From positions 64,001-128,000 of the forward strand of contig JBKAGE010000001.1 of NCBI GenBank assembly GCA_046290225.1: 64,000 nt of DNA. Reading direction: 5' to 3'. This DNA is from Bradymonadia bacterium (lineage in GTDB: Bacteria > Myxococcota_A > Bradymonadia > UBA7976 > UBA1532). Each line of letters opens with the position of its first letter. Position 1 is the first letter of the stretch. The notes beneath the pieces are model-generated. The model was not told the DNA's origin. It saw nothing but the letters and a program-made list of their open reading frames with translations, and did not search any database. Position numbers and translations under genes: made by a program. Shown in pieces: positions 14,593 to 35,100 of the stretch.

Positions 14593-16302
14593 TCACTCTT
14601 CGGGGCGGTCGCTCCCGGCGAAGATGAACTCCTGGACCCGCGGATCGGGATGATCCTGCAGTGCCTCTGGCGTGCCCACCGCCACCAGGTGCCCTTTGTA
14701 GATCATCGAGATCTGATCGGCGATGCGGAACGTCGAGGGCATGTCGTGGCTGATAACGATCGAGGTGATGTTGAAGGTCTCTGCCGCCTCCACGATCATG
14801 TCGTCCACCCGCTTCATCATGATCGGATCCTGCCCGGTGGTGGGCTCGTCGTAGATCATGATCTCGGGCTTGGTCACGATGGCCCGGGCGAGGCCCACGC
14901 GCTTGCGCTCACCATTGCTCACCGCCGCGGGGTAGCGGTCGAGGATGTCTTTGACCTTGAGCTGCTCGGCCACTTCTTCCACGCGCTCTTTGACGGCCTT
15001 CTTCTTCCAGCGCAGACGCTCGGCGAGGGGGAAGCCGATGTTGTCTCTGACAGTCATCGAGTCGAAGAGGGCAGCGCTCTGGAACAACAGCCCGATGCGC
15101 GCCTGCACCTTCTGCATCTCCTGGCCGCTCAGCCCATTGAGGCGCTGACCGAAGACATCCACGGTGCCTGCCGTGGGCTGGAACAGCCCGATGATGTGCT
15201 TGATGAGCACAGATTTACCCGAGCCCGATCCACCGATGACCACGGAGATCTTCTGCTTGGGAAACTCGAGGGTGATCCCCTTGAGCACCTTGTTGGTGCC
15301 AAAGCTCTTGTGCAGGCCTTCCACCACCACGACGGGCTCGCCGCCAATGCTCCTGGGCACAGGCACGATGGGCCCACCCTCGAGATCGGGCACCACATCG
15401 ACGGTGCTGATGTCTTCCGAGACCGACGAGGCGTCGGGCAGGCCCTCGATGCGCTCGACCTCGGGCGCCTCATCTGTGTGGGCAGCCTCACCACGGGTCA
15501 AACGCTCGGTGGAGATGTTCGCCATGAAGGCCTTCACCGCGGGCAGATCACTCGACGCCACCTCGTCGAAGGTGCCCTCGGTGATGATCTTGCCCCCTGA
15601 CAACATGGCCATCTGATCGGCGAGTCGCTGGTTCGACGCCATGTCGTGGCTGATGATGACCGAGGTGATCTTGTACTCGCGCTGGGTACGGATGATCAGG
15701 TTGTCGACGAACTCGATCATCACCGGATCGAGGCCCGTCGTGGGCTCATCGAAGAGCACCACCTCGGGGTTGGTGATGACGGCCCGGGCGAGGCTGACGC
15801 GCTTCTTCATGCCCCCGGACAACTCGCTGGGCATGCGGTGCCGGGCGTGGGGCAGCTCGAGCATCTCGAGCAAATCGTCCACGAGCTTGGCGATCTCCGG
15901 GGCCTTCATGCGCGTGTTCTCCCGCAGCGGGAACGCGATGTTGGCGAAGACGTCCATGGAGTCGATGAGGGCGTAGCTCTGGAACACCATGGTGCAGCGC
16001 TTGCGCAGCTCGGTGCGGGCGGTCTCGCTGGACCGGGCGAGATCTTCCCCGAAGAGGCGCACCTTGCCGCTGTCGGGGATCACCAGACCGTTCATCATGC
16101 GCAACAAGACCGACTTGCCTGACCCGGACTCGCCGACGATGACCGTGGTCTTGCCAGTGCCGATCTTGAGGTTGAGGCCATCGATGATGGTCTCGCCGTC
16201 ATAGCGCTTGGTGACGTTCTCGAGCTCGATGACGGGCTCGCTGTCGGGCCACCGCGTGATGTCGGGCAGCAGCAGGTTCTTACGGGTGGTGGGGCTGTTC
16301 AC
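14593..16302 (-). CDS. ABC ATPase with two tandem MlaF/Mkl-like nucleotide-binding domains
   Basis: Two Walker A motifs (GESGSGKS, GGSGSGKS), two Q-loops (FQSYAL, FQSAALFDS), signatures LSGGMKKRV and VSNGERKRV, DEPTTG twice and ISHDM twice. Start placed at GTG 16302. Confidence 0.92.
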   Translation of the reverse strand: MNSPTTRKNLLLPDITRWPDSEPVIELENVTKRYDGETIIDGLNLKIGTGKTTVIVGESGSGKSVLLRMMNGLVIPDSGKVRLFGEDLARSSETARTELRKRCTMVFQSYALIDSMDVFANIAFPLRENTRMKAPEIAKLVDDLLEMLELPHARHRMPSELSGGMKKRVSLARAVITNPEVVLFDEPTTGLDPVMIEFVDNLIIRTQREYKITSVIISHDMASNQRLADQMAMLSGGKIITEGTFDEVASSDLPAVKAFMANISTERLTRGEAAHTDEAPEVERIEGLPDASSVSEDISTVDVVPDLEGGPIVPVPRSIGGEPVVVVEGLHKSFGTNKVLKGITLEFPKQKISVVIGGSGSGKSVLIKHIIGLFQPTAGTVDVFGQRLNGLSGQEMQKVQARIGLLFQSAALFDSMTVRDNIGFPLAERLRWKKKAVKERVEEVAEQLKVKDILDRYPAAVSNGERKRVGLARAIVTKPEIMIYDEPTTGQDPIMMKRVDDMIVEAAETFNITSIVISHDMPSTFRIADQISMIYKGHLVAVGTPEALQDHPDPRVQEFIFAGSDRPEE

Positions 16303-16342
16303 GGGGTGAGGATGGCGATGGTCTCGAGCGGATGCAAGGCCA

Positions 16343-16684
16343 TCAACGGGGCCGGGTATACGTCCGCTTCCGTTTCTTCTTGGGCAGGCGCACCGGCAGG
16401 GCCTCGACGACGACGTCACCGTGGACCTCGGACTGGCAGGCCAGACGCTCCTGGGTGAGATGGAAGATGTTCCCCAGCTGGCGCTTCTCAAGGGCATTGG
16501 GCGACGAGAGGTGCGCCATGCCTTCGAGGACCTTCACCTTGCACTGCACACAGGCGCCGGCACCGTTACAGAGGGTGTGCACCGGCGCCTCGACCTTGTG
16601 GGCCAGGCGCAACAATGTGTCGCCGTCTTCCGCCTCGACGGTCCAGCGCTCTTCTTCTTTGACGAATACGACGGTGTGGCTCAC
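16343..16684 (-). CDS. 2Fe-2S ferredoxin (adrenodoxin-like)
   Basis: C-x5-C-x2-C (CNGAGACVQC) plus RLACQ. Confidence 0.92.
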   Translation of the reverse strand: MSHTVVFVKEEERWTVEAEDGDTLLRLAHKVEAPVHTLCNGAGACVQCKVKVLEGMAHLSSPNALEKRQLGNIFHLTQERLACQSEVHGDVVVEALPVRLPKKKRKRTYTRPR

Positions 16685-20604: not shown

Positions 20605-22440
20605 TCATTTACCCTTCTGTAGACCCTCTCTGAGATAGAGCTGCTCGAGGTTCCAGTGCGTCTTCGGCCGTAAGGGGCTCGGGCGGAAATTGCCCACTCT
20701 ATCTTGAGCGGCGGCGAAGGACGACTCGACGACAAGCATGATCTGCGGCAGCTGATCGCTGAACAGATACATCAGCTCATCGAGGGCTTTCTTGCGCACG
20801 GCGTCGTCCCCCCCAGCGCTCGCCTGCTCGATGAGGGTGTTCATCCGGGCTTCCCAGGGCCGCCTGGGGCTCGACTGCCCCGGATCCCAGAGATGACTGC
20901 CACCACTCGACAAGAAGACGCTCTTGAGCAATGTGGGCTCTGGCGGCACCGAGGCACCCCACCCGAGCAATACCGCCTCGAAGGTTCTTGTCCGGGTCAA
21001 CTTGACCACCAGTTCCTGAAACGGCAGCGGCCGCACATGCATGGTGATGCCCAACCGATCGAGATCGTCTTTGATCAGATTGAGCAGCTGTACCCGGATG
21101 GCGTTCTCGGCGTTGGTGAGGGCGGTGAAGATCACCGGCTGGCCCTCAGGGCTGATGAGCGTCTTCTTGCCTGCCCGCTGCTCGATGGTGAACCCCTCGG
21201 CCTCGAGGAGAGCCCCAGCTCGCTCCAGGTCGTAGGGGTACTCCACCACATCGGCCCCTGACCACCGGGTATTCCCCGGGCTGATGAAGCTGTAGAGCGG
21301 CTCACCCCGATTGTGTAGGGCCACACGCACCATGGAGGCACGATCGATGGCGTGGCTGATGGCTTTGCGGAACCCCTGCCGTTCAAACCACTGCCGGCGC
21401 GTGGGATCGATCCTCGGCACACCATCAGCGTCGGGTCGTGGGTCGAGGTTGAACATGAAGTAATGCGTGTTGAGGGAGGGGCCCAGGGCCTTCACGGTGA
21501 AATTCCGTGTCTTCGACGCCCGCTGGAGCAGCTCGACGAACTCGTTGCGCACATCGTAGAGATCGATCTGCCCCTCGCGAAACAGCATGAAGGCCGAGTT
21601 CGGATCTGGGGTGATGAGATAGGTCACAGTGTCGAGGTACGGCAGCTGCTGACCCTGGGCATCAACCTGCCAATAATGGGGGTTCCTGGTGAGCACCAGG
21701 CGCTCGCTCTCTGTGTATTTATCGAGCATGAAAGGGCCAGAGGTGACGAGTTCTTCGGGCTTCGTCTCCATGCTCATCACCTCATCGAAAGTGCCTGCAT
21801 CTCGTGCGGCAGCCCACCGGGCCTTGGGCACAAAACGCACGGAGCTGGCGAGCAGTTCGAACTTGGGCACGGGTTGGGTCAGGATGTACTTGAACCGCCG
21901 CCCGTCGATCTTCTCGATCTGCACGTACCGCGGCTGGCCGTCATCGCCCTGCCCCTGATGGAACGCCGACTTGAGGGGGCTGGCCACCCTGGGGTCGAGG
22001 GCCAGCTCATGGCTGAAGACCGCATCATCAGCGGTGATGGGGGTACCATCTGACCACTTCGCCCCCGCTCGCAGCGTGAAGGTGTACGTCAGCCCGTCCT
22101 CGCTCAGCTCGAAGGACTCGCACAACGCCGGCATGCCCTCCTGCTTGCTGTAGTCGAAGGCCCAGCACGGGGCGAAGAGGGCGAACTGCACCACCTCGCC
22201 CGAGTGAGCGTCACGGATCTTCAAGGGGTTGAGGGTGGAGGGGGCAGAGGTGAGGCTCAGCACGAGATCCCCACCAGACTTGCCGACTTCACCGCCTCCA
22301 GGGGCGCTGCCACCCTTGGGCAGAGCGGGCTTTGGCGCAGTGCTCGGCGCAGAAGGCTCTGGTGGGCTCTTGCTGCACCCCCACGGCAGGCAGATGGCCA
22401 ACATCATGGCACTGTAGATGGAGTGAGCTCCCCCGGCCAT
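20605..22440 (-). CDS. ABC transporter substrate-binding lipoprotein, family 5 (peptide/nickel)
   Basis: PSTLNP, SEDGLTYTFTLR..AKWSDGTPITADD, SGPF, RNPHYW, LPYLD and FRKAISHAIDR; lipobox PWGC. Start uncertain. Confidence 0.93.
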   Translation of the reverse strand: MAGGAHSIYSAMMLAICLPWGCSKSPPEPSAPSTAPKPALPKGGSAPGGGEVGKSGGDLVLSLTSAPSTLNPLKIRDAHSGEVVQFALFAPCWAFDYSKQEGMPALCESFELSEDGLTYTFTLRAGAKWSDGTPITADDAVFSHELALDPRVASPLKSAFHQGQGDDGQPRYVQIEKIDGRRFKYILTQPVPKFELLASSVRFVPKARWAAARDAGTFDEVMSMETKPEELVTSGPFMLDKYTESERLVLTRNPHYWQVDAQGQQLPYLDTVTYLITPDPNSAFMLFREGQIDLYDVRNEFVELLQRASKTRNFTVKALGPSLNTHYFMFNLDPRPDADGVPRIDPTRRQWFERQGFRKAISHAIDRASMVRVALHNRGEPLYSFISPGNTRWSGADVVEYPYDLERAGALLEAEGFTIEQRAGKKTLISPEGQPVIFTALTNAENAIRVQLLNLIKDDLDRLGITMHVRPLPFQELVVKLTRTRTFEAVLLGWGASVPPEPTLLKSVFLSSGGSHLWDPGQSSPRRPWEARMNTLIEQASAGGDDAVRKKALDELMYLFSDQLPQIMLVVESSFAAAQDRVGNFRPSPLRPKTHWNLEQLYLREGLQKGK

Positions 22441-22568
22441 CGCGTATCCTCCCCGACCACGATTGCACATCGGGATTGATTACCACGGCTCTGGACCTCG
22501 CACGCAACACCAACACTCATCACGAACCACACCAGCGCTGTGGTGAGGCTCATCGTAGGGCAATCACC

Positions 22569-23243
22569 CTACCCGCAATGCGCCTCGGGACACTCTGCCA
22601 GGGCGCCGGCGATGTAGGCCCCAAGTCGGGCGGCGGTGTCGACGTCTTCAATGGCGCGATCGCCAAAGCGCTCGCCAGGGATCTCGCGCCACATGAACTT
22701 GTCCTCGGCGCTGCACCCCTTCCAGAGAGAGAAGCCCACCCGCTCCGGGCTCGATGAGCGCCACACATCGACGTAAATGTGCCGGCCCTCGCAATGTGTG
22801 TGGGCCGCCGGGCTGGCAAGCTCGGGGGAGAAGAACTTCTCAGGGCTCAACGACGTAAAGCTGGGGGCGCCCTCCACCATCAGCTCTGCGGCGACAGGCT
22901 GCTCCATGGCGGCGACGAGGCCGTCGGCGAGGGCCTCGAGCCAGAGGGTGCGAGTGTCCTGGTCCTTCACTTTGAGGCCCACGTCTTTGAACGAGATGAC
23001 GTCGGCCCAATAGGGCCCTTGCACCCGCACGGCGAAGGGTGAGTACACCGGGGTAAAGCGCTTGGTGGCACTCTTCATCTCCGCCTTGGCGGTCGGTGCC
23101 ATGGGTGGCGGCGCTGAAGCCCCTGTGGGGGTTTTCTTGCTGCAGCCCGAGAAGGCGAGGCAGGCCACGGCGAAGGCGCTCAGAGAGAGGCAGGCGGCCC
23201 GGCGCAGGGGGCGCCGAGGGTTGCGGTGTCGGGGGTCTGCCAT
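22569..23243 (-). CDS. Hypothetical lipoprotein
   Basis: Arg-rich n-region, hydrophobic core, lipobox FSGC; GGAG upstream. Confidence 0.72.
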   Translation of the reverse strand: MADPRHRNPRRPLRRAACLSLSAFAVACLAFSGCSKKTPTGASAPPPMAPTAKAEMKSATKRFTPVYSPFAVRVQGPYWADVISFKDVGLKVKDQDTRTLWLEALADGLVAAMEQPVAAELMVEGAPSFTSLSPEKFFSPELASPAAHTHCEGRHIYVDVWRSSSPERVGFSLWKGCSAEDKFMWREIPGERFGDRAIEDVDTAARLGAYIAGALAECPEAHCG

Positions 23244-23290
23244 TAAAACTCTCCGTTTCGTTGAGCCTTTGCCCAGAGGAGGCGACGCCG

Positions 23291-24133
23291 TTGACGCCGG
23301 CCGATGCTGTAGATCTCAAGGCCCTCGTGCAGAGCCTGCTCGGCCCCGACGAGGGAGAGCAGGCGTTGCCATCGGGGCGCGCAGGCGCCGGCCTGGCTTC
23401 GATGCTCGATCCCGCAGGGGGGGTGCAGCTCGCCGAGGCCTTGAGCCATCCGCCCCTGCCCCTCGCGACCAGCGCCATCAGCGCGTATGCACCGGACACC
23501 GCTCAGGTGGAGCGGCAGATTCGCCGGGGGCTCGACGCCCTCGAGCGCCGGCTGCGCCGCACCTTCGACGACGCGTTCAAGGCGCGCTATCGGTTGCCTG
23601 GGCCCAGCAGATGCCTCGACCTGCTGCAGGAATCCGGGGCCCTGAGCGAGCGCAACGCCAAGGGGAAGCCCCTCGCCAAGGCCCTGAAGAAAGCCTGCCG
23701 CACCCTGTGGGCCCCCTTTGGGGCCTTCATCGAGACTCAGTATAAACGGGCGCGCTTCGACTTGCGTCAGCTCAGGGACGATCTCGGGGCCGCTCTCAGG
23801 GCCCGCGGCGGCGACGCCGCCCGCCTCGAGCACCTCGACGGGTTGCTCCGAGAGGCCATACGGGTGGAGGGGGAGCGCCGTTACCGTCGTCTGCTCCATG
23901 CCCTCGAGCAACGCTTCGCCACACAAATCGAAGCCCTCGCCACCGAGCTGACCGCCCAGGCCACCGTACACGATCTCGAGCCCGCCTTCGGCGACGACGG
24001 CCCCTTTGCGGAGCTGGTGCGTCTGGGGCGCTCGGTGGTGTTTTCGGTGATGCAACATGAGCGGGCCTTGTTGGAGGGCCTGATGAACGTCGTGACACCT
24101 GCATACGATCAACGACGCGAGGGGATCCATTGA
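23291..24133 (+). CDS. zorF: DUF3348-like protein (Zorya type III ZorF-like)
   Basis: GAGGAGG RBS then TTG at 23291. LASMLDPAGGVQLAEAL and LR..L.AAL.ARGGDAARLEHLDGLL...LEQRF resemble DUF3348 as I recall it. First gene of the ZorA/ZorB/DUF2894 operon. Confidence 0.7.
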   Translation: MTPADAVDLKALVQSLLGPDEGEQALPSGRAGAGLASMLDPAGGVQLAEALSHPPLPLATSAISAYAPDTAQVERQIRRGLDALERRLRRTFDDAFKARYRLPGPSRCLDLLQESGALSERNAKGKPLAKALKKACRTLWAPFGAFIETQYKRARFDLRQLRDDLGAALRARGGDAARLEHLDGLLREAIRVEGERRYRRLLHALEQRFATQIEALATELTAQATVHDLEPAFGDDGPFAELVRLGRSVVFSVMQHERALLEGLMNVVTPAYDQRREGIH

Positions 24134-26277
24134 CGTCGATTTGGATCGCGATCTTCGGTGGAATCGGGGCCACGGTGGTGGCCCGGATCGGCTTCACAGC
24201 CTATGGGCGTGACCCGGTGGCCCTGGGGCTGTCGGTGCTCATCGGCGCCGGCCTCCTGTTGGGCCTCGTGGAATTATGGCGCCGAGCTCGCCGGGCCCAT
24301 CAAGCCCTCGACGCGCTCAACGCCGAGGTCGACTTCACTGACACGACACACCGCGAGCGCCTCCCCGCCCACGTCCGAGGGCCCCTCGAGGGCGCGCTCG
24401 CCGGCCACGGCGCCCCAGGCGAGATTCCAGGGTTCACCCCCTACCTCGCAGGGCTCGTGGTCATGCTGGGGCTCATCGGCACCTTCCTCGGCCTCGTGGA
24501 GGCACTCTCGGGAGCCCGTGAGGCCCTGGTGACCGGCGACGGCGCCGCTGATGTCGATGGCCTCCGCTCTGGCCTGGTGGCGCCGATGCAGGGCCTGACC
24601 CGCGCCTTTGGCACCTCGGTGGCCGGTGTGGCGGCCTCTGCCTCTCTCGGGCTGTGTCTCGTATGGGTACGTCGAGTAGAGGCCCGAGTACGACGCCGCC
24701 TTGATCAGCTGCTCGCGGGGCCCCTGGCCCACCTGACCCCCGCAGGGCGCCACCACGCAGCCCTCGACGCCCTCGTCTCTCAGAGCGCAGCCCTGCCTCA
24801 GGCCGCCGAGGCCCTGCAGGGGGCCGTCGAGCGACTGGATGTCCTCGGCAAGGATCTCGCCCGGGCCCATGGAGAGGCCACCCGCGCCACCACCAAAGCC
24901 CACCTCGACGCCGTGGCCGCCGCCGAGAAGGCTCATCGTGAAGCCACGATGGCCCTCGAGAAAGCACACCTGGAGGCCACGACCCGGGCAGAGAAGGCCC
25001 ATCGCGAAGCCACGGCCAGCGCCGAGCAAGCTCACCGAGAGGCCACCGCCAACGCTGAGAAGGCCCACCACGAAGCGGTCACAGCCGCGGCGAAGGCCCA
25101 CCACGACGCGGTCAAAGAGGCATCTGCCGCTCAGAGCGACGCCACACGAGCGACTGTTCAGGCCCTCACCGAAGGGGTGAAGGCGATCCGCGCCGATCTG
25201 CAAGAGGCCAGCATCATCGTGAGCACTGAGGCCGTCGCCGCCGTGCAGCCCCTCGTCGCCGAGGGGGTGGCGAAGCTCACCACCACTGCAGAGGAGCACG
25301 TCAGCCGGCTTCAACAACAGCTGAGTGAAGAGGCCACCGCTCGACAAGCAGAGAGCGCGGCCCACCTCGACCGGCTGCGAGAGGCCCTGCAGGCCACGGT
25401 GCAATCCATCCAATCGCAACAGGCTGCACAAGGTCAGCAGATCACCGAAGGTGTCACGGGGGTCATGACCTCTCTCGACGCCACCGCCCAGTCCGTCGCC
25501 GAGGGCCTCGGCACCCTCGAGCGTCAGGGGACGCAATGGATGATCGAGATCCGAGGCGATCTCTCAGGGCACCTCGAAGCGATCCAGCAGGCGGTGGTTG
25601 CGCCTCTCGAAGCCACCGCCGAGGCCCACCGGGCAAAGGCCGAGGCCCTTGATGGCCTCATCACCGCCTCCAACGCCCAGCTCGAAGCACAAGGGGAAGC
25701 CCTCGCCGCCCAGAGGCAGGCCATGCAGACGCAGCATGGTGAGATCACCGCGCAGCTCACGGAGAGCGCAGCCCAGGTGAGCGCCGCAGCTGAAGGATCC
25801 AGCGCGGCCATCGCAGCCCTCGGCGAGGCCCTCACCGAGACCGTGCGCCAGGGGCTCGACCGTCGGCTCACAGATCAGCAGACACTCGAAGCTCAGCTCA
25901 CCACTCAACATGAGAAGGCCCTCGCCGATCTCGGCGCCCGTCTGGTGGAGCACGCCCAGAGCATGAGCGCCGATCTGGCATCTACAGGAGACATCGTCCG
26001 CGAGGCAGCTGAGCTCGCCCGGGCGAGCGGCGTGGAGCTGTCGCTGGTGGCAGAGTTGTTCACCGAGGCCGTGGATCGTTATCGCGGCGCCAGCGAAGCC
26101 TGGCTCGACACCCTGGCCCGCCTCGAAGGGACCCTGAGCAGCAGCGGTGATGGCCAGAGCAGCGTGGCCCTCGGGCAATACCTCGATCAAACCCGCGAGG
26201 TCTTCAGCGACTCTCTCCGGGTGCAACAGGCCCTCTTCGCCGAGCTGCGCAGCCTGAAGGCTCGAGAGGCCAGCTGA
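24130..26277 (+). CDS. zorA: ZorA-like MotA/TolQ/ExbB-family membrane protein with a long coiled-coil tail (DUF802-type)
   Basis: N-terminal TM helices; FTPYLAGLVVMLGLIGTFLGL and APMQGLTRAFGTSVAGV channel motifs; Ala/Glu/Gln-rich helical tail of about 530 aa; TTGA overlap with the upstream gene. Confidence 0.85.
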   Translation: MTSIWIAIFGGIGATVVARIGFTAYGRDPVALGLSVLIGAGLLLGLVELWRRARRAHQALDALNAEVDFTDTTHRERLPAHVRGPLEGALAGHGAPGEIPGFTPYLAGLVVMLGLIGTFLGLVEALSGAREALVTGDGAADVDGLRSGLVAPMQGLTRAFGTSVAGVAASASLGLCLVWVRRVEARVRRRLDQLLAGPLAHLTPAGRHHAALDALVSQSAALPQAAEALQGAVERLDVLGKDLARAHGEATRATTKAHLDAVAAAEKAHREATMALEKAHLEATTRAEKAHREATASAEQAHREATANAEKAHHEAVTAAAKAHHDAVKEASAAQSDATRATVQALTEGVKAIRADLQEASIIVSTEAVAAVQPLVAEGVAKLTTTAEEHVSRLQQQLSEEATARQAESAAHLDRLREALQATVQSIQSQQAAQGQQITEGVTGVMTSLDATAQSVAEGLGTLERQGTQWMIEIRGDLSGHLEAIQQAVVAPLEATAEAHRAKAEALDGLITASNAQLEAQGEALAAQRQAMQTQHGEITAQLTESAAQVSAAAEGSSAAIAALGEALTETVRQGLDRRLTDQQTLEAQLTTQHEKALADLGARLVEHAQSMSADLASTGDIVREAAELARASGVELSLVAELFTEAVDRYRGASEAWLDTLARLEGTLSSSGDGQSSVALGQYLDQTREVFSDSLRVQQALFAELRSLKAREAS
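24865..25128 (+). repeat. Eight 33-bp (11-aa) tandem coding repeats AHxEAxxxAEK inside zorA
   Basis: AHGEATRATTK/AHLDAVAAAEK/AHREATMALEK/AHLEATTRAEK/AHREATASAEQ/AHREATANAEK/AHHEAVTAAAK/AHHDAVKEASA. Confidence 0.9.
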
Positions 26278-26278
26278 C

Positions 26279-26998
26279 GTGTACGGCGGCCCCCCTCAGT
26301 CTCAGCGCTCAGGCGTTGTCGAGCCCGATGAGAGCCCTCCGGTCTGGCCGGTCTTCGGCGATCTCATGGCGGGCCTCTTCGGGCTCTTCGTGCTGTTCTT
26401 CATGTGGGCCATCACCTTCCAGACTGATCTGGCCAACACCCTCGAAGCCCGAGAGGCCGCCCTGGTGGCTCAGCAGAAGGCCCTGGCCCAGAAGCAGGCC
26501 GATCTCGACGCTGAGCGCGCCGCTCGAAAGAAAGAGAAGGCCCGGCTCGAGGCCCTGGAGCGCGCCCTCGCCGGGCCACTCTCTGAAGGCCTCATCACGC
26601 TCACTGAGGGACGCATCGGGATTCGGGGCAGCGTGCTCTTCAGTTCGAACTCCGCTGCCCTCACCGCCGAAGGCACCACCCTCATCGGCCAGCTCGCCGG
26701 CCCTCTCGAAGCGTTCCTCAAAGGCCGTGAAGAGATGGTCATGATCAGCGGCTACACCGACGACAAGCCCATCGCTCGGGGCAACGCCCGCTTCGCCGAC
26801 AACTGGGCGCTCTCCTCCGAGCGGGCCCTCACGGTGACCCGAGCGCTCACCGAGTCCGGCCTGCCTGGGGATCGCCTCATCGCCGCGGGCTTCGGGCCCA
26901 ATCACCCAGTGGCCACCAACGAGACCCCCGAGGGCCGCGCCCTGAATCGCCGAGTGGAGATTCAGCCGGTCCCTCGAGCCACCGCCGGGGGCCGGTGA
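26279..26998 (+). CDS. zorB: ZorB/MotB-like protein (TM helix plus OmpA-like peptidoglycan-binding domain)
   Basis: PVWPVFGDLMAGLFGLF (conserved channel Asp), GYTDD, DNWALSSERA..V, GFG..HPVA.N and NRRVEI. Confidence 0.88.
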   Translation: MYGGPPQSQRSGVVEPDESPPVWPVFGDLMAGLFGLFVLFFMWAITFQTDLANTLEAREAALVAQQKALAQKQADLDAERAARKKEKARLEALERALAGPLSEGLITLTEGRIGIRGSVLFSSNSAALTAEGTTLIGQLAGPLEAFLKGREEMVMISGYTDDKPIARGNARFADNWALSSERALTVTRALTESGLPGDRLIAAGFGPNHPVATNETPEGRALNRRVEIQPVPRATAGGR

Positions 26999-27789
26999 TG
27001 GCCTCCCCTGATCTCGCCACGGATCTCGTCGCCCGCCTCGACGCCCTGAAGGCACGCGGCGCCGAGGGCTTCGACGGCCCCGCGGTGCGCTTCATCGCCA
27101 ACCTCGTACAGAAAGCCACCACCATCGGGGGTGGCGCAGGCGATCGTCTGGTCGATCGCGCCCACGTGCGCCTGCAGGCCCTGGAGACCCAGCTCGACGA
27201 GGCCCTGGCGAAGTCCGAAGAGGCTTTGAGCGCCCTCGCAGCTGTGGCACAGGGGCCCGAGGGAGAGGGCGCCGTCGCCACCGTTCAAGCCCTCGTGGAC
27301 CAGGGTGATCACCGAGAGGCACTTCGGACCGCACAGCGCTTACGGCGTACGCTCGGCGATGGCCGCCAGCCTCAGGCGAAGGCCCGCGTCCGTCGCCAGC
27401 TGTCCCGGGCCGAGGCCGCCGACACCTCTGCCTTGTCACAACCACTCCGGCAGCGCATGCAGGCGGCCCTCGATGATCCGACGAGCCCGCCCGAGACCCT
27501 CGACGCCCTCGCTGACGAGGCAGCAAAGGCGATGTACCGCGCCGTGGCCGACGATGCCCACGCGACTCTCGCAGTGGCCCAGGCCGGTGACGAGGTCCCC
27601 GACGAAGCAGGGCCCTACAACCCCCAGGCGGTGAGCGCCCGGGCCCTCGCAGCCCTCGAAGCCCTGTCGCCAGCGCACCTGCGCCATTGGGTGCGACACC
27701 TCGAAGGCTTCGAATCCCTCTCAGCGCTCCCCGAGCCGCCGGCACCCAAGAAGCGAGGCAGCAAGCGAGGCGGAGGCCGCCGAAGGTGA
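26995..27789 (+). CDS. zorG: DUF2894-like protein (Zorya type III ZorG-like)
   Basis: LDALKARGAEGFDGPAVRFI and VPDEAGPYNPQAVSARAL..L..LSPAHL resemble DUF2894; basic tail; GTGA overlap with zorB. Confidence 0.75.
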   Translation: MMASPDLATDLVARLDALKARGAEGFDGPAVRFIANLVQKATTIGGGAGDRLVDRAHVRLQALETQLDEALAKSEEALSALAAVAQGPEGEGAVATVQALVDQGDHREALRTAQRLRRTLGDGRQPQAKARVRRQLSRAEAADTSALSQPLRQRMQAALDDPTSPPETLDALADEAAKAMYRAVADDAHATLAVAQAGDEVPDEAGPYNPQAVSARALAALEALSPAHLRHWVRHLEGFESLSALPEPPAPKKRGSKRGGGRRR

Positions 27790-27793
27790 CGTC

Positions 27794-28942
27794 ATGGCTG
27801 ATCTGAAGGCAGAGCTCGACCGGCTGCTCGCGGAAGCCGATCACCAGGCCCACCTGAGCCGGGATCCGATCCGCTTCGTACACCGCTACCCCGATCCGCT
27901 CGATCGCGAGGTGGTGTCGATCTACGCCGCCCTCATGGCCTATGGCCGGGTCGATCTCATCGGCAGGGCCCTGGAAGATCTCGTGGCCCGCCTCGGGCCA
28001 AAACCCTTCGAGGCCCTGAAGCAGCGTCGGAGCGACGCCGAAGTGATCGCCCACTTCGACGGCTTCGTCTATCGACTCACCCGGGGGATCGATCTCGCCC
28101 GCCTCTGGCAGGGCCTCGCCGCCGTGGTCGACACCCACGGCAACCTCGGTGAGGCCATGGCGTGCTTCGACGACGCCGAGTCCCCCACCCTGCTCCACGC
28201 CGTGAGCACACTGCGCAAGGCCATCTACGACGCCACCTCGCACTTCGAGAGTCGGCGGGCCTTCAACCACTTTCTCGCTGATCCACAAGGGGCGAGCCCG
28301 TGCAAGCGCTGGTGCATGTGGCTGCGGTGGATGGTCCGGGGCCCTGACGAGATCGATCTGGGGCTGTGGCGTGATCTGGGGGCGCACCGTCTGGTCATGC
28401 CACTCGATACGCACATCCACCGGCTCGGCCGCTACCTGGGCCTCACCGCCCGAAAGAGCGGTGACCGGCGCACGGCCCTCGAGATCACCACCGCGCTCAA
28501 AGCCCTCGATCCGCTCGATCCGCTCAAGTACGACTTCGCGGTGGCCCACATGGGCATCAGTGGCCAGTGCCCTACCCGCCGAGTGGCGGAGATCTGCGCG
28601 CATTGCCCCATTCAAAAGGTGTGTCAGCTGCCGGACGGGCGCCGAAGCGGCCGTCCGCTCAACCCGGCAGAGGCTGCTTGTCCACGGCCCTTGGGGGCTG
28701 CGGTACGCCCTTGCGGTAGCGAGACTTTTCTCCTGGCCCCGAGTCGTCGATCCACGAGTACGACCGCTTGCGCACGTCGAGGTGCACGAACCGCGCGTTG
28801 GGGTAGTAGCCCGAGCCCACCTTCGGCAGCGTGCGCAGCACTGACCACACCTCTTTATGATCGACGCCGTCAACCCGCAGATCGATGGCCTTGCCCTGAT
28901 AGTGCCTGCTGCTCTTGCGCGTGGTGGATCGATGCCCGCTGA
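27794..28942 (+). CDS. TIGR02757/DUF2400 family protein with a C-terminal EndoIII-like Cys cluster and an atypical extension
   Basis: DPIRFVHRY, AYGRV, SPCKRWCMWLRWMVR..D.IDLGLW, MPLDTHIHR, DPLDPLKYDFA and C-x8-C-x2-C-x5-C. The last about 95 codons overlap the convergent gene. Confidence 0.88.
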   Translation: MADLKAELDRLLAEADHQAHLSRDPIRFVHRYPDPLDREVVSIYAALMAYGRVDLIGRALEDLVARLGPKPFEALKQRRSDAEVIAHFDGFVYRLTRGIDLARLWQGLAAVVDTHGNLGEAMACFDDAESPTLLHAVSTLRKAIYDATSHFESRRAFNHFLADPQGASPCKRWCMWLRWMVRGPDEIDLGLWRDLGAHRLVMPLDTHIHRLGRYLGLTARKSGDRRTALEITTALKALDPLDPLKYDFAVAHMGISGQCPTRRVAEICAHCPIQKVCQLPDGRRSGRPLNPAEAACPRPLGAAVRPCGSETFLLAPSRRSTSTTACARRGARTARWGSSPSPPSAACAALTTPLYDRRRQPADRWPCPDSACCSCAWWIDAR

Positions 28943-29384
28943 TGATGTGGATACGGGCCTCGAAGTGCCGGGCGAGGGCGTGCAGGTGATGCAGTAGACG
29001 ATCAGGCGGGATCTTCTCGACCCCTTTGCGCCAGTCCCTCAAAAAATGCGCCATCTGTGTGCGACCCTCAGGGCGCACCACCCAGCCGTCCACAGCGTCC
29101 ATATCGGGCTCGAGCAGGCGGATCGAGGCCTCTTCCCGGGTGTTCACGTGACGCACGTGGATGTAGCCGGCATTGATGGCCTCGAGTTTTTTTCGCCCCA
29201 AGGGCTCGGGACGATCTTCTGCGGCGAGCGGCCCGAGATCGGACTCGTCGTCTGCATCACGGAATCCGCCATCAGGCCCTGCGGCAGATCGACCCTGACG
29301 ACCCGCGCAGCCAGTGGCCATCAGGCCGCCGAGCATCAACACCTCTCGGCGGGTGGGGATCACGATGTTCGAGGCTCGCCGCAT
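28659..29384 (-). CDS. YcbK/DUF882 peptidase M15A-type (MepK-like) Tat lipoprotein
   Basis: TRREVL...ATGC signal; HFLRDWR, IISGHRS, SRHYQGKAID (H-x6-D) and FVHLDVR (HxD); GAGGAG RBS. Confidence 0.9.
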   Translation of the reverse strand: MRRASNIVIPTRREVLMLGGLMATGCAGRQGRSAAGPDGGFRDADDESDLGPLAAEDRPEPLGRKKLEAINAGYIHVRHVNTREEASIRLLEPDMDAVDGWVVRPEGRTQMAHFLRDWRKGVEKIPPDRLLHHLHALARHFEARIHIISGHRSTTRKSSRHYQGKAIDLRVDGVDHKEVWSVLRTLPKVGSGYYPNARFVHLDVRKRSYSWIDDSGPGEKSRYRKGVPQPPRAVDKQPLPG

Positions 29385-29865: not shown

Positions 29866-30059
29866 CCGACGCCACGCTTTCCCCACTCCGCGGCGCACCC
29901 CAGACAATTTTAAGTGACAATTCCGGCCTTTCAGCTTCAACACCTGGGTGACGGCCGCGGTGTCAGGTGTCTCAATACTTGCGCCGCAGTAGATGCGTCA
30001 CCCCCGTGAGCTGTACTAGACTGCCGCGCACTCGGGGATTCACTGGAGATCTGCGCCTC

Positions 30060-32186
30060 ATGCAACCTTTGGCCGCTGCAGCCACATCGTGTCTCACTCT
30101 CGCCCTCGTGGGCGCTGCTTACACGTCCGCCCTCGCCCAGAGCGGCGCGCCTGCCGCTGAAGCCCCAGCTGCTGAGGCCCCAGCTGCGGCGCCTGCGGAG
30201 GGCGCGGCCACGGAGACGGCGGCTTCGACAGAGGCTGCGGCACCGGCCTCGGGCGACGATGGAGGCGCCACCAGTGAGGTGGTGAACACCATCGAGGGTG
30301 AAGTCTCCCTGGTGAGCGACGAGCGCGTGCCGCCTGATCAGCGCGGGCCGAACATGGAGGGCGGCAACGGCCTCAACCGCACGCTCTCTGCAGATCCTGG
30401 CCCCCAAGGGACCTTCCGCTTCCGGCTCAGCGGGTTCCTCTCCGAGTCCGAAGACTTCCCCGCCCCGGGCTCGTCGAACAGCTTCTCTGGTGCCAGCCTG
30501 GCCCTGGGCTACACCCCCATCGAGTTCCTCGAGGTGTTCTTCAACGCCCGGAACACCAGCAACGTCAACGAGGGCACCCGCCCCGACCTGTTGCAGACGC
30601 AGGGCGACATGTCGCTGGGCCTCAAGGGCGGCTACTTCATCCTCCCCGAGGTGGCCGTGGGCCTCGCGGCGAGCGCCCATCTCTACAGCGGCCTCGGTGA
30701 GGGCTCGTTCTCCCTCGACACCACAAGCTTCTGGGTGCGGCTCCTCACCACCGTCGATCTCAAGCGCAGCCAGAACATCCCGGTGCGCTTCACGCTCAAC
30801 GTCGGCTACTACAACGAGAACTCCGAGAACCTCTATGGAGACGGCGACAACCTCGACGTCATCCAGGAGTGGGGGCTGCAGACCTACCGTTATGATCGCC
30901 TCACCATCGGTGCGGGACTCGAGGTGCCCTTCAACGAGTATGTGAGCCCCTTCGTCGAGTACCGCCTCGACGGCCCCCTGAAGGTGAAGCTCAAGGACTT
31001 CGCCGCGAACTCCTCTTTCGAATACGACTTCAGCGCGGTGCCTCACACCTTCACGCCGGGCCTGCGCGGGTTCCCGCTGCCCGAGCTGATGCTCGAAGCC
31101 GCAGCGGAGATCGCCATCACCACGGAGACCACCTTCAGCGGCGTGCCCGCCACGCCGCCGTGGATGATCACCTTCGGCATCGCCTACACCCTCGACCCTC
31201 GCCCCGTGGTCATGTCGAAGGAGATCGTGAAGGAGGTGGCCCCCATCGCGCCTCCGCCGCCGCCCGTCGCGCCTGCCCCGAAGGAGGGCCGCATCGCCGG
31301 AAAGGTGCTCGACGCCAAGACCGGCAAGCCCATCAAGGACGCCCGCATCACCTATCCGGGCCGCACGGTGAGCGCTCAGCTCGCCGACGCCAGTGGCCGC
31401 TTCGGCAGCTACCCCTTCGAGCCCGGCAAGGTGAAGGTGCAGGTCATGGCCGACGGCTACCTCGCCATGAGCGGCGAGGCCGACGTCACTGCTGACAAGG
31501 ACACCCCCCTCGAGCTCAAGCTCAAGCTCGATCCGGAGCAGCAGAAGACCACCTTCACCATCGAGGTGGCCAACGAGAAGGGCAAGACGCTCCCCAAGGC
31601 CACCTACACCGTGGGCACCACCAAAGAGCCCGCCCTCAAGACGGGCCAGATGGGCCCCACGGGCATCGTCGCCGTGCGCGATCTGCCCCCGGGCACCTAC
31701 GATCTGACGGTGAAGGCCAAGCGCTACGAAGACTTCACCCGCAGCTACCGCCTGAAGGGGGGCACCCCCCTCACGGCGAAGGTGGTCATGACGAAGCCCG
31801 AGCGGAAGAAGCGCTCGCTGGTGGTGCTCAAGCGGAACCGCATCGTGATCCGCCGCAAAGTGCACTTCGCCACGGGGACCGCCAACCTGACCCGTGACTC
31901 GAAGGCCCTCCTCGCCGAGGTGGCCCAGGTCCTCAAGGACAACCCCCGCATCAGCAAGGTGCGCATCGACGGCCACACCGACGGCAAGGGCAGCCGCACC
32001 AAGAACCTGAAGCTGAGCAAAGAGCGCGCTGAGGCGGTGAAGACCTATCTCGCCCGCCGCGGGGTGCGCAAGAAGCGCCTCGTGACCAAGGGCTGGGGCC
32101 CCGACAAGCCCCTGGCGCCGAACATGACCAGCCGCGGCCGCGAGAAGAACCGTCGGGTGGAGTTCATCATTCTCGGGAGACGTTGA
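30060..32186 (+). CDS. Outer-membrane beta-barrel, Pro linker, carboxypeptidase-regulatory-like domains and an OmpA C-terminal domain
   Basis: Signal peptide (ALA|Q); alternating aromatic beta-strands ending ITFGIAY; PPPPP linker; GRIAGKVLDAKTGKPI; DLPPGTYDL; OmpA motifs VHFATG, IDGHTD, LS.ERA.AV and NRRVEF. Confidence 0.9.
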   Translation: MQPLAAAATSCLTLALVGAAYTSALAQSGAPAAEAPAAEAPAAAPAEGAATETAASTEAAAPASGDDGGATSEVVNTIEGEVSLVSDERVPPDQRGPNMEGGNGLNRTLSADPGPQGTFRFRLSGFLSESEDFPAPGSSNSFSGASLALGYTPIEFLEVFFNARNTSNVNEGTRPDLLQTQGDMSLGLKGGYFILPEVAVGLAASAHLYSGLGEGSFSLDTTSFWVRLLTTVDLKRSQNIPVRFTLNVGYYNENSENLYGDGDNLDVIQEWGLQTYRYDRLTIGAGLEVPFNEYVSPFVEYRLDGPLKVKLKDFAANSSFEYDFSAVPHTFTPGLRGFPLPELMLEAAAEIAITTETTFSGVPATPPWMITFGIAYTLDPRPVVMSKEIVKEVAPIAPPPPPVAPAPKEGRIAGKVLDAKTGKPIKDARITYPGRTVSAQLADASGRFGSYPFEPGKVKVQVMADGYLAMSGEADVTADKDTPLELKLKLDPEQQKTTFTIEVANEKGKTLPKATYTVGTTKEPALKTGQMGPTGIVAVRDLPPGTYDLTVKAKRYEDFTRSYRLKGGTPLTAKVVMTKPERKKRSLVVLKRNRIVIRRKVHFATGTANLTRDSKALLAEVAQVLKDNPRISKVRIDGHTDGKGSRTKNLKLSKERAEAVKTYLARRGVRKKRLVTKGWGPDKPLAPNMTSRGREKNRRVEFIILGRR

Positions 32187-32189
32187 GCC

Positions 32190-35100
32190 ATGCACCGTAC
32201 ACACCTGCCAGCGCTCCACGGCGCGCTGCTCCTGCTCCTCAGCGTGCTCCTCGGCGGCTGCGGTCGCTCGAGCCTCGACTGCGCCACCACGGCGGATTGC
32301 CCCTCGGGCAACATCTGCATTCAAGATCAGTGCGTGAGCGGCCCGCCGTGTGCCTTGGGCCTGTGTCCCACAGGCCAGGTGTGCGTCTCCGACATCTGCG
32401 TCGACGAGGAGCGCCTCGCCGGCGTGTGCGGGCCCAACCGCGCCTGCCCCGACGGCCAGCGCTGCAGCGAGCAGAACCTCTGTGAGCCCTGTGGCCCCGA
32501 GGGCTGTGATCCGCTGATCTGTGATCCGGAAGATCCCAACTGTCAGGTCTGCGCCGGTGATCAAGAGTGTGGCGCCGGTCTCATCTGTGACGACGGTCGC
32601 TGCCGTGTAGGCTGCCGCTTCAACCAGGACTGCCCGGGTGGCCTGTGTGATCCGCAGAGCCAGACCTGCGTCGACCGCCAGTGCAATCAAGACCTCGACT
32701 GCCCTGATCCTCTGCTGTGCGATCCTCAGGGCCAGTGTGTGGACTGCCTCTCTGATCCCGATTGCGGTCCGGGCCGCGTATGTGATCTGAACATCTGCCG
32801 CCCCTCTGATCAGTGCATCGGCGACGAGGAATGCCCTGCGGGCTTCCTCTGCCTCAACGGCGCCTGCGAGCGGGGTGAGGGCTGCCTCGGCGACTTCGAC
32901 TGTCAAAACGGCGAGGTCTGCATCGACGGCGCCTGCATCCCCGCCGGCTGCCAGTCCGACGAGGAGTGTGGTGACGGTCGCCAGTGCGTCGCCGGTGAGT
33001 GCCTGCCCGTCGGCCAGTGCCGCCGGGACACGGATTGCGATCCGGGCTTCTCCTGCATCGCCGGTGAGTGCCGCTTCGATCCCGAGTGCCGCGTCGACGT
33101 GGACTGCCCCCCAGGCCTCATCTGCGAGCAAAACCGCTGCATCGAGCAGCTCGAGTGCACCATCGACGGCGACTGCCTGCCGGGCCAGCAATGTCGCGGT
33201 GGCTTGTGTGTCGGGGTGCCCGACTGTCGCGGTGACTTCGACTGCCCTCCTGGCCGCGTGTGCCAGATGGGCCAGTGCATCGTGGGGCCCGAGTGCCTCG
33301 ACAACTTCGACTGCCCACCTGGTGAAGAGTGCATCGACGAGCTGTGTGTGTCGGCGCCTGAGTGCCGCAACGACAACGACTGCCCCTTCGGCACCCAGTG
33401 CGTCGACGAGCTGTGCGTCCCAGTGCCCGGCTGCCGTGGCGACTTCGATTGCCCAGATGGCCGCCTCTGCCAGGCAGGGCAATGTGTCATCGCGGGCTGC
33501 ATCAACGACCTCGACTGCCCTCCTGACACCATCTGTGAAGCGGGCCTGTGCCAGCCGGTGCAGTGCCGGTTCGACGGCCAGTGCCCCGCCCAGCAAATCT
33601 GCGACGACGGCCGCTGCACCCCGGTGGAGTGCCGTGACGACAACGACTGCCCCGCAGGGGGCGAGTGTCGCGGCAACGTGTGCTTCCAGGATCCCCGCTG
33701 CCGCGTGGACGACGACTGTCCTCCGGGGAACGCTTGCCTCGCAGGCAGCTGCGCCCCCGTGGGCTGTGCCGACGATCGCGACTGTGACGAGGACGAGCAG
33801 TGTGAGCAGGGCCGATGCGTCGCCGGAGAGTGCCGCAACGACGATGATTGTGGTCCTGGGGTGACCTGTGTCGCCGGGTTCTGCCTGCCGGAGTTCGTCT
33901 GCGAAGACGCCAACGACTGCCCCCAGCCTCTGCAGTGCATCAACAACGAGTGCCGCGCAGGCTTCCAGTGCGAGCGTGACGAAGAGTGCGATCCCGGCGA
34001 GGAGTGCCTCTTCGGCATCTGCATCAGCCTGCCCCCGCCCCAGTGCCTCAACGACGGTGACTGCGGCCTCAACGAGCGCTGCGAGCTGGGCCAGTGCATC
34101 CCTGGCGGTGGCCCTCAGTGCCGCCGTGATGCCGATTGTGGCTTCGGCTTCCGCTGCGAGGGGGGCGCCTGTGTCGCCGATGGCTGCGTCGTCGACGGCC
34201 AGTGTGATCCCGGCGAAGTCTGTGAAGCCGGCGTGTGCATCCCCGCGCCGGAGTGTCGCGAGGACTTCGACTGCGGCGTCGGCGAGATCTGTCAGGCCGG
34301 TGTCTGCGTGTTCGCCGGCGAATGTCGCCGTGATCTCGACTGCCCCGAGCCCCTCGTCTGTGAAGACTTTCGCTGCGAGGTGCCTCCGGCCTGTGGCCCC
34401 GGGAACCCCTGCCCGGCCAACCAGATCTGCCGCGATGATCAGTGCGTGCCCGACGGCCGCTGCCAGAACGACTTCGAGTGTGGCCCGGGGAACCGCTGCG
34501 ACGACGGTGAGTGCGTGCCTGCCTTCGAATGTCGCGGTGACGTGGACTGTGGTGCCGGTGAGGCCTGCCGTGGCGGTCAGTGCGTCTTCGTGGGTCAGTG
34601 CCGCGAGAACATCGACTGCCCCCAGCCGTTGATTTGCGACAACTTCGAGTGTGTGCCCGACGTGGAGTGCAACGTCGCCGCAGACTGCGGCGGTCGAGGC
34701 TTCGAGTGCTTCGCCAACCAGTGCATCTTCGTCGGCGAGTGCGACTTCGACAACGAGTGCCCCCCGGGGAACCGCTGCGAAGACTTCCTCTGTGTCCCCG
34801 ACGAGCAGTGTGGTGCTGGCGATCCATGCCCTGCAGGCGAGCAGTGCCTCATGGGCCTCTGTGTCTTCGAGGGTGAGTGCCGCGTCGACAACGACTGCCC
34901 CTCGCTCTTCTCGTGTGAAGACTTCATCTGCGTCGAAACCGGTCGCTGCCAGCGCGACGAAGAGTGCGCCCCTCTGGGCCAGGTCTGCGATCCCTTCAGC
35001 CGCACCTGCGTCGACGAGAACTTCTGCAACGATCAGCGAGACTGCCCCGAGAACCAGCCCTGCATCGGCAACCTCTGCCGCCCTGTGGGCTTCTGCCGCG

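Follow-up and report, generated by a model that had tools for sequence, protein, structure and literature searches.

A probable chromosomal type III Zorya locus in a Bradymonadia bacterium, followed by a DUF2400 gene

Layout of the locus

The stretch of DNA analyzed here (the window) comprises 64,000 nucleotides of contig JBKAGE010000001.1 of a Bradymonadia bacterium (assembly GCA_046290225.1), and at 23291-27789 it carries four genes of the same orientation (+ strand in the open reading frame (ORF) list) that we identify as a probable type III Zorya system. Gene 1 encodes a divergent DUF3348 protein and is followed by zorA, zorB and gene 4, the last of which encodes a DUF2894 protein. An earlier reading of the letters of the window (the original prediction) had proposed that this gene set corresponds to the type III Zorya anti-phage systems, and all four genes were found to match models for that type in the canonical order, the same order as is given for type III in a published account (PMC11946911). 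As is characteristic of type III, the DUF3348 gene lies directly before zorA and the DUF2894 gene directly after zorB.

The genes are tightly packed, with junctions that we read directly from the sequence and that are as originally described: a TTGA overlap between gene 1 and zorA (TTG at 24130 over TGA at 24131-24133), a 1-bp gap between zorA (TGA at 26275-26277) and zorB (GTG at 26279), and a GTGA overlap between zorB and gene 4 (GTG at 26995 over TGA at 26996-26998), with an ATG at 26998 as an alternative start for gene 4. The likely start of gene 1 is the TTG at 23291, because the sequence GAGGAGG lies 8 nt upstream and the first part of the longer frame, 23096-23290, lacks the GC pattern of a coding region. 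In that part GC at second codon positions (GC2, 0.72) exceeds that at third positions (GC3, 0.71), compared with a GC3 of 0.78-0.82 inside the four genes. The original prediction of a four-gene operon stands as to the four genes themselves; what it overlooked is a fifth co-oriented gene, of the DUF2400 family, whose ATG (27794) lies 4 bp beyond the stop codon of gene 4 with no terminator-like site between the two. The transcription unit probably comprises five genes (Table 1).

Table 1. Features of the Zorya locus and its boundaries in the window
Feature	Position	Strand	Basis or remark
SBP_bac_5 gene, beyond the divergent 224-aa ORF	20605-22470		Pfam
Upstream boundary: divergent 224-aa ORF, one hydrophobic segment, no family	22569..23243	-	ORF list, Pfam, hydrophobicity
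Shine-Dalgarno-like GAGGAGG	23276..23282	+	8 nt 5' of the TTG start of gene 1
Gene 1, DUF3348 protein, 280 aa	23291..24133 (longer frame from 23096)	+	ORF, PADLOC, profile search
zorA, 715 aa	24130..26277	+	PADLOC ZorA3
Tandem repeat, 33/66 nt, within the ZorA tail	24921..25076	+	Tandem Repeats Finder (TRF)
zorB, 239 aa	26279..26998	+	PADLOC ZorB3, NCBIfam, Pfam OmpA
Gene 4, DUF2894 protein, 264 aa	26995..27789	+	Pfam, PADLOC ZorF3
Fifth gene, DUF2400/TIGR02757, 382-aa frame	27794..28942	+	Pfam, NCBIfam, predicted fold
Downstream boundary: convergent Peptidase_M15 (DUF882) gene, overlapping the DUF2400 tail	28659..29384	-	Pfam E 1.1e-15, coding GC pattern

ZorA and ZorB, the probable motor pair

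ZorA matched two PADLOC models of ZorA3 (PDLC00648, E 1e-61; PDLC00647, E 2.5e-59), compared with E-values of 2.6e-6 or weaker for the ZorA1 models. Its membrane head of ~180 residues contains four hydrophobic segments (residues 3-24, 28-50, 99-129, and 160-180); the remaining ~530 residues (~185 to 715) make up a helical, cytoplasmic tail that has two prolines in its last 485 residues and a hydrophobic period of 3.6-3.65, features that bear out the original description of a MotA-like membrane protein with a helical tail of this length. The coding sequence of the tail includes TRF repeats with periods of 33 (3.4 copies) and 66 (2.4 copies), which correspond to 11-residue units of the AEKAHREAT type at residues 265, 287, 298, and 309. 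The open frames for ZorA at twelve loci of the same family (L021-L032) range from 743 to 1346 aa, and nearly all of the difference from the 715 aa of the window's protein lies in the tail.

No match of ZorA to the Pfam family MotA_ExbB (PF01618) was obtained at E <=0.1, and a six-frame scan of the genome (8.58 Mb in 83 contigs) with PF01618 identified seven MotA_ExbB loci elsewhere and none at the Zor locus, which is the only ZorA3/ZorB3 locus of the genome. When a profile of the ZorA head built from 50 sequences was compared with solved structures, the only match was 8vvn_C (E 7.6e-8), described as the type I ZorA of Shewanella (PMC11890865), with no MotA, TolQ, or ExbB among the matches. ZorA as a single sequence gave nothing credible against the PDB, and a search for related loci with the single ZorA protein returned no relative; a search with a ZorB alignment worked instead.

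ZorB matched the PADLOC model of ZorB3 (PDLC00651, E 6.9e-79) and the NCBIfam model NF006547 (267 bits, above its cut-off of 194). The NCBIfam models of flagellar MotB, MotD, and MotS all scored below their cut-offs, the best being MotD (NF006541) with 102.6 bits against 283. The protein has a single transmembrane (TM) helix with the channel residue Asp28 in the sequence FGDLMAG, and a coiled linker connects this helix to a peptidoglycan-binding domain of the OmpA type (Pfam OmpA, E 3.4e-18), so that the MotB-like protein with an FGDLM aspartate and an OmpA-type domain is as first proposed. D28 is invariant in 16/16 aligned homologs, as is the N-x2-L-S-x2-R-A stretch of the OmpA domain in the same alignment. 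Solved structures matched by a ZorB3 profile were MotB of C. sporogenes (6ysf, E 2e-27), ZorB of Shewanella (8vvn_B, 1.3e-15), and ZorB of E. coli (8qyd_F, 2e-9).

The soluble proteins encoded on either side of the motor pair

The DUF2894-like character claimed for gene 4 was confirmed by a clear Pfam match (PF11445, E 1.6e-15, 58.6 bits against a cut-off of 25) and by the PADLOC model ZorF3 (E 1.9e-16); its product is soluble. Across 17 homologs the G, Y, and N of a GPYN motif are invariant (17/17), and the P is present in at least 70%. The nomenclature of the flanking genes is in conflict: gene 4 corresponds to ZorG in the text of Payne 2021 (PMC8565338) and to ZorF3 in PADLOC-DB, and gene 1 corresponds to ZorF in the same text and to ZorG3 in PADLOC-DB.

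Gene 1 is divergent, and the DUF3348-like motif seen in it could be traced to the family by PADLOC and by a profile search but not by Pfam. The PADLOC model ZorG3 (DUF3348) matched at E 1.2e-4; the Pfam model (PF11828) reached E 0.11 and 12.7 bits, below its cut-off of 25 (10.6 bits in the genome scan), and a word-indexed homolog search returned, besides gene 1 itself, only two close homologs. The check by Pfam and PADLOC that had been suggested for the locus accordingly identified DUF2894, OmpA, ZorA3, and ZorB3 but left DUF3348 below the Pfam threshold. A profile built from gene 1, the two close homologs and two family orthologs was then run over 1.84 billion representative sequences and matched 191 proteins at E <=1e-3, 136 of them at <=1e-10. 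In an alignment of 150 sequences (gene 1 and 149 matches) 71 had a PF11828 match at <=1e-3, and apart from one rve match no other family competed. In addition, tblastn with gene 1 led to the gene directly upstream of zorA at two loci of the same phylum (7e-7 and 8e-14), and the gene matched at 8e-14 (locus L045) itself carries Pfam DUF3348 at 6e-10. Since the profile search bridges to PF11828 proteins, we assign gene 1 to DUF3348 as a divergent member by transitive homology, below the curated threshold.

The product of gene 1 has no hydrophobic segment and is soluble. Its AlphaFold2 model, computed from the 150-row alignment, is all-helical with a predicted local distance difference test (pLDDT) score of 92.5. 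Comparison of the model with solved structures by Foldseek gave nothing at E <=1e-3, and the best match of a VIA-wide comparison was a designed helical bundle with a Z-score of 9.5, below the level that is meaningful for helical bundles.

A DUF2400 gene is attached to the locus in this lineage

The fifth gene matched Pfam DUF2400 (E 3.4e-64) and TIGR02757 (185 bits, cut-off 139). The structural model of its product, which is confident for residues 1-283, superimposes on endonuclease III (EndoIII; 1orp) with a Z-score of 12.5 and a root mean square deviation of 3.8 over 203 of 213 residues (VIA), and the best structural matches were all EndoIII, MutY, OGG, or QNG1; Foldseek gave a probability of 1.00 but an E-value of 1e-2. 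A profile of 18 sequences matched EndoIII-1 of D. radiodurans (DrEndoIII-1) marginally (E 0.0035), with alignment of PLDTHxHR (D205) to PVDTH and of a loop with C259, C268, C271, and C277 (C-x8-C-x2-C-x5-C) to the cysteine loop of DrEndoIII-1. The protein is thus predicted to have the HhH-GPD fold of the EndoIII-like Fe-S DNA glycosylases, with the four-cysteine loop as a putative Fe-S site. The aspartate of the EndoIII VDTH motif that aligns with D205 is the catalytic residue of EndoIII. Among the orthologs D205, H207, K171, and R172 are invariant and each of the four cysteines is conserved in at least 90%.

The frame continues well beyond this conserved core, which ends near 28645. Its last ~90-100 codons (28643-28942) lie beyond the end of all 17 aligned orthologs, and this tail is disordered in the model (pLDDT <50), has a non-coding GC pattern and overlaps the convergent Peptidase_M15 gene; the frame appears to run on here because its usual stop codon has been lost.

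The linkage of DUF2400 to the Zor genes is real and specific to the lineage. DUF2400 lies directly 3' of the DUF2894 gene in 9/12 loci fetched from genomes of the window's family, although the other flanking genes differ, and among the 15 family relatives that have both, contig coordinates place it beside the Zor genes in 11. Across the family 15 genomes have ZorA and DUF2400, one has ZorA only, three have DUF2400 only (67-92% complete), and five have neither; in two genomes (G002 and G023) both genes are present but are not adjacent. Outside the family, DUF2400 is found as a single copy in 10/16 genomes of other families of the class, all of which are without ZorA, and out of 80 type III loci in other lineages a single one contains it, in a record whose ZorB falls inside the clade of the window's family. 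At four other-family loci (L038-L041) the DUF2400 gene is beside a gene for an Rce1-like CAAX protease (4/4) and near tsaE (2/4), a conserved neighborhood of a housekeeping type. A literature search that covered openly accessible main texts yielded no functional paper on DUF2400/TIGR02757.

Distribution and descent of the locus

Relatives of ZorA were identified in 16/24 genomes of the family and in none of 16 genomes that represent five further families of the class. ZorB3 was counted at E <=1e-30 in an even sample of 251 genomes of the phylum, the window's own included, and was present in 19/251, comprising 10/13 in the family and 8/237 elsewhere. The best named relatives of the window's ZorB are from Sorangium, Byssovorax, Labilithrix, and Polyangiaceae records (54-59% identity), which supports, at the level of the phylum, the 'myxobacterial' placement originally suggested; many further relatives are from Burkholderiales and Xanthomonadales (45-54% identity). 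Five family genomes that lack the system are 87-100% complete in four cases and 72% complete in the fifth.

The ZorB tree (99 rows) groups largely by taxon. Besides a Polyangia group it has a Pseudomonadota clade (support 99) made up of 70 rows and another clade (support 97) in which 11 family rows are joined by a 'Bradymonadia bacterium' record; the window and genome G005 are unresolved at the base. A tree constrained to unite the 14 family rows in one clade was not rejected (approximately unbiased test, p-AU 0.81), and the ZorB phylogeny would fit vertical descent within the family. Together with the presence of ZorA in 16/24 family genomes and the common local synteny, this agrees with the original suggestion that the system is long-resident.

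The frequency of the system differs widely among other groups. In the genus of genome G266 (a Stenotrophomonas record) ZorB3 was found, once each, in 59/61 species genomes (58/60 without the unpublished genome G322), and in the family of a Sorangium record it is patchy, at 8/41 genomes. Type III is reported to be commonest in the Burkholderia, Xanthomonas, and Stenotrophomonas groups (PMC11890865).

The DUF3348 gene is separated from zorA in most relatives

A DUF3348-like gene was found in 20/24 family genomes and 0/16 others, and the only genomes in which it adjoins zorA are the window's own, G005 and G011. In G012 the two genes lie 3.6 kb apart, in three genomes they share a contig but are separated by 18-55 kb, and in nine they are on different contigs. 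At 6/10 relocated loci that were fetched, the neighbor of the DUF3348-like gene is the same SBP_bac_5 gene as is found upstream of the locus in the window. A 3-sequence hidden Markov model (HMM) and the 150-row profile detected a DUF3348-like ORF in only 2/12 fetched family loci, and the ORFs upstream of zorA in the other family loci gave 0/17 PADLOC matches plus one weak match for L026. Where DUF3348 has moved, the ORFs upstream of zorA belong to unrelated Pfam families (arginase, CotH, metallo-beta-lactamase, and SASA).

An in-frame TGA was flagged in 11/21 DUF3348 matches (some stop codon in 14/21); in the 10 fetched loci this was traced to the alignment having overrun the natural stop codon.

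The genomes with the split arrangement form a supported ZorB clade, and those contiguous genomes that are in the tree, the window and G005, lie outside it. On this basis the window probably retains the older, canonical arrangement. Three genomes (G003, G016, and G018, 100, 72, and 87% complete) keep the DUF3348 gene where ZorA was not found. In these genomes (loci L138 and L139) the DUF3348-like gene, with E 1e-65 to 1e-70 against the profile, is beside SBP_bac_5, and no ZorA or ZorB3 was found. Because the gene is conserved in genomes in which the motor pair was not found, it may have a role independent of the motor.

Genomic setting

The claim that codon usage at the locus is native was upheld by relative synonymous codon usage (RSCU), which correlates at r = 0.963 between the four genes and 10 neighboring genes. 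GC content at 24-28 kb is 0.68-0.69, slightly above the 0.60-0.67 of the rest of the window. Likewise, no integrase, transposase or phage gene was identified by Pfam among 36 neighboring ORFs, and PADLOC on 20 neighbors produced matches to generic domains only (ABC ATPase, OmpA domain, and subtilase), in agreement with the original statement that neither defence nor mobility genes are nearby. ARAGORN found no tRNA in the window, and a scan for promoters and terminators found nothing above the shuffled expectation. One candidate was an ABC ATPase gene at 14593-16497 (- strand, 634 aa), which we rejected as a MADS defence gene, as its mad3 match (5.7e-47) covers generic ATPase regions and the protein is ABC-F-like with tandem ABC_tran domains.

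Upstream of the locus are the divergent 224-aa ORF, the SBP_bac_5 gene and a gene for a TonB-dependent receptor. On the other side, the Peptidase_M15 gene is not conserved beside the locus in relatives. Further downstream, at 29967-37220, a 739-aa OmpA-domain protein (CarboxypepD_reg, PEGA) is followed by a 1676-aa protein of DUF7107 repeats (Pfam E 1e-79), together a large envelope or surface pair.

Discussion

We consider the locus to be a type III Zorya system that lies on the chromosome and is passed on vertically, with an ion-driven motor and a likely anti-phage role, a reading to which we give a probability of about 0.7. Type III was defined by PADLOC from 6,401 instances, and the type III system of Stenotrophomonas nitritireducens protected E. 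coli and reduced plaquing, both according to PMC8565338. Because that system was protective, anti-phage defence is, by analogy, the most likely role here as well. By homology with types I and II (8QYD and 8VVN; PMC11946911 and PMC11890865), ZorA and ZorB would assemble into a 5:2 ion-driven motor in the inner membrane. The OmpA-type domain of ZorB would tether this motor to peptidoglycan, and ions would be conducted through ZorB past its Asp28. The coiled-coil tail of ZorA, as suggested by types I and II, may pass a signal of envelope perturbation to soluble partners, here presumably the helical DUF3348 and DUF2894 proteins. The ZorA5B2 architecture, the loss of function caused by D26N and the requirement for the tail are all described in PMC11946911. 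The system is probably co-transcribed with the DUF2400 glycosylase-like gene and occupies a conserved place on the chromosome in the family.

Several observations weigh against this reading. The ZorB3 profile is closer to flagellar MotB (6ysf) than to any solved ZorB, and it is therefore ZorA, the two DUF genes, and the gene order, rather than ZorB, that support the assignment to Zorya. Presence in 16/24 family genomes and in 59/61 genomes of one genus is unusual for a defence system. The DUF3348 gene is apart from zorA in most relatives and is kept by three genomes in which no ZorA was detected. The mechanism is borrowed from types I and II, whose nuclease effectors type III lacks.

It is in our opinion extremely improbable that the likeness to Zorya is superficial and the pair is an ordinary stator of the flagellar, gliding (AglRQS), Tol, or Ton kind. 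The best solved match of the ZorB profile, flagellar MotB (6ysf, 2e-27), is what speaks for it, whereas ZorA has no PF01618 match at E <=0.1, the genome-wide PF01618 search recovered seven loci other than this one, the MotB, MotD, and MotS models are all below cut-off with NF006547 above, and neither a tail of 530 aa nor neighboring DUF3348 and DUF2894 genes are known from any such stator. The comparison with MotAB, TolQR, and AglRQS, put forward originally as a way to overturn the Zorya assignment, thus came out against those families. A subtler possibility is that a ZorAB-like stator has been domesticated, in this family and perhaps in type III generally, for housekeeping surveillance or maintenance of the envelope, with phage defence secondary or absent. 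The distribution of ZorA and ZorB3 (16/24 in the family versus 0/16 in other families; 10/13 versus 8/237 in the phylum sample), the occurrence of the locus only once in the genome, its native codon usage, the lack of island features, the presence of ZorB3 in 59/61 genomes (58/60 without G322) of the genus with the Stenotrophomonas record, and a ZorB tree that groups largely by taxon all speak for such a function. Nevertheless, type III is reported to protect E. coli from phage (PMC8565338) and its genes to be up-regulated on exposure to phage (10.64898/2026.01.02.697320; PMC12584637), and its patchiness in the family of the Sorangium record (8/41) is usual for defence. Five genomes of the window's family lack the system (four of them 87-100% complete, one 72%), and the genome has seven ordinary loci of the MotA/TolQ/ExbB family elsewhere. 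We regard domestication as quite unlikely.

The position of DUF2400 raises the question of whether it is a working fifth component, an EndoIII-like Fe-S enzyme or base reader that the ZorAB tail and the DUF2894 protein would bring to bear on incoming phage DNA, in the role that the ZorD and ZorE nucleases have in types I and II. In its favor, the co-oriented gene starts 4 bp after the DUF2894 stop codon, is separated from it by nothing resembling a terminator, is directly downstream in 9/12 family loci and adjacent in 11/15 relatives with both genes, and is found or missed together with ZorA across the family (15 both, five neither, and one plus three with a single gene). The predicted HhH-GPD fold (Z 12.5), the invariant D205 and the four cysteines (at least 90%) also speak for it, and glycosylases of the HhH superfamily are described in a preprint (bioRxiv 10.1101/2025.10.29.685425) as stand-alone anti-phage proteins. 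Conversely, DUF2400 is single-copy in 10/16 genomes of other families, none with ZorA, where it is beside the Rce1-like gene and tsaE; it is in only 1/80 type III loci of other lineages, that one with a ZorB from within this family's clade; and G002 and G023 keep both genes apart. Furthermore, the genomes are related and hence not independent of one another; a single ancient juxtaposition followed by loss of the two genes together may explain why they co-occur. We consider a working fifth component unlikely on balance. The same low expectation attaches to the broader idea that type III has been rewired in this family, such that zorA, zorB, DUF2894, and DUF2400 stay together, DUF3348 drifts and persists even where ZorAB is absent, and DUF2400 is the arm that acts on DNA. 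If true, rewiring would provide the first candidate effector for type III and the first function for DUF2400, and a lineage-specific fifth component is an idea that can be tested directly.

Returning to type III Zorya as the preferred identity, this is a published and tested defence type of which the window's locus is a further member. New here are the attached DUF2400 gene, the family-wide residency of ZorA and the separation of DUF3348 from zorA in most relatives. Type III is the least understood Zorya type: a single functional test is described in the papers cited here, and our literature search, of the same scope as above, found no mechanistic work on the type III partner proteins. The locus by itself adds little to it; of greater consequence is the family pattern, that is, core-like inheritance, a separable DUF3348 gene and a DUF2400 gene that remains attached across genera where other synteny has been lost. 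In addition, the 59/61 presence of ZorB3 in one genus bears on the question of whether defence is the only role of type III Zorya.

Comparison with known systems

The DUF2400 protein resembles EndoIII and MutY in its predicted fold (Z 12.5 to 1orp), in a PLDTH sequence that aligns with the EndoIII VDTH and in a C-terminal loop with four cysteines; it differs from them in that sequence similarity is marginal (profile E 0.0035) and in its own cysteine spacing of C-x8-C-x2-C-x5-C. With the flagellar MotAB/PomAB stators (C. sporogenes 6YSF/8UCS) the window shares a related B subunit (2e-27) that has one TM helix with an aspartate and an OmpA-like domain, whereas its A subunit has no MotA_ExbB match and bears a 530-aa tail. 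The ZorAB of type I (E. coli 8QYD; Shewanella ANA-3 8VVN) is alike in having a homologous ZorA head, a long helical tail, and a ZorB with the aspartate and a peptidoglycan-binding domain, but the soluble partners in the window are unrelated, ZorC and the nuclease ZorD are absent, and the window's ZorB shows no greater similarity to type I ZorB than to MotB. The closest likeness is to type III Zorya (Payne et al., 2021, PMC8565338; PADLOC models), with which the locus has in common all four families, identically ordered and co-oriented, the long ZorA tail, and the TM aspartate and OmpA domain of ZorB. It departs from these systems in a DUF3348 protein too diverged for the Pfam threshold, in the DUF2400 gene that follows in a probable operon and in its host, which belongs to the Myxococcota rather than to the Burkholderia, Xanthomonas, or Stenotrophomonas groups named in PMC11890865.

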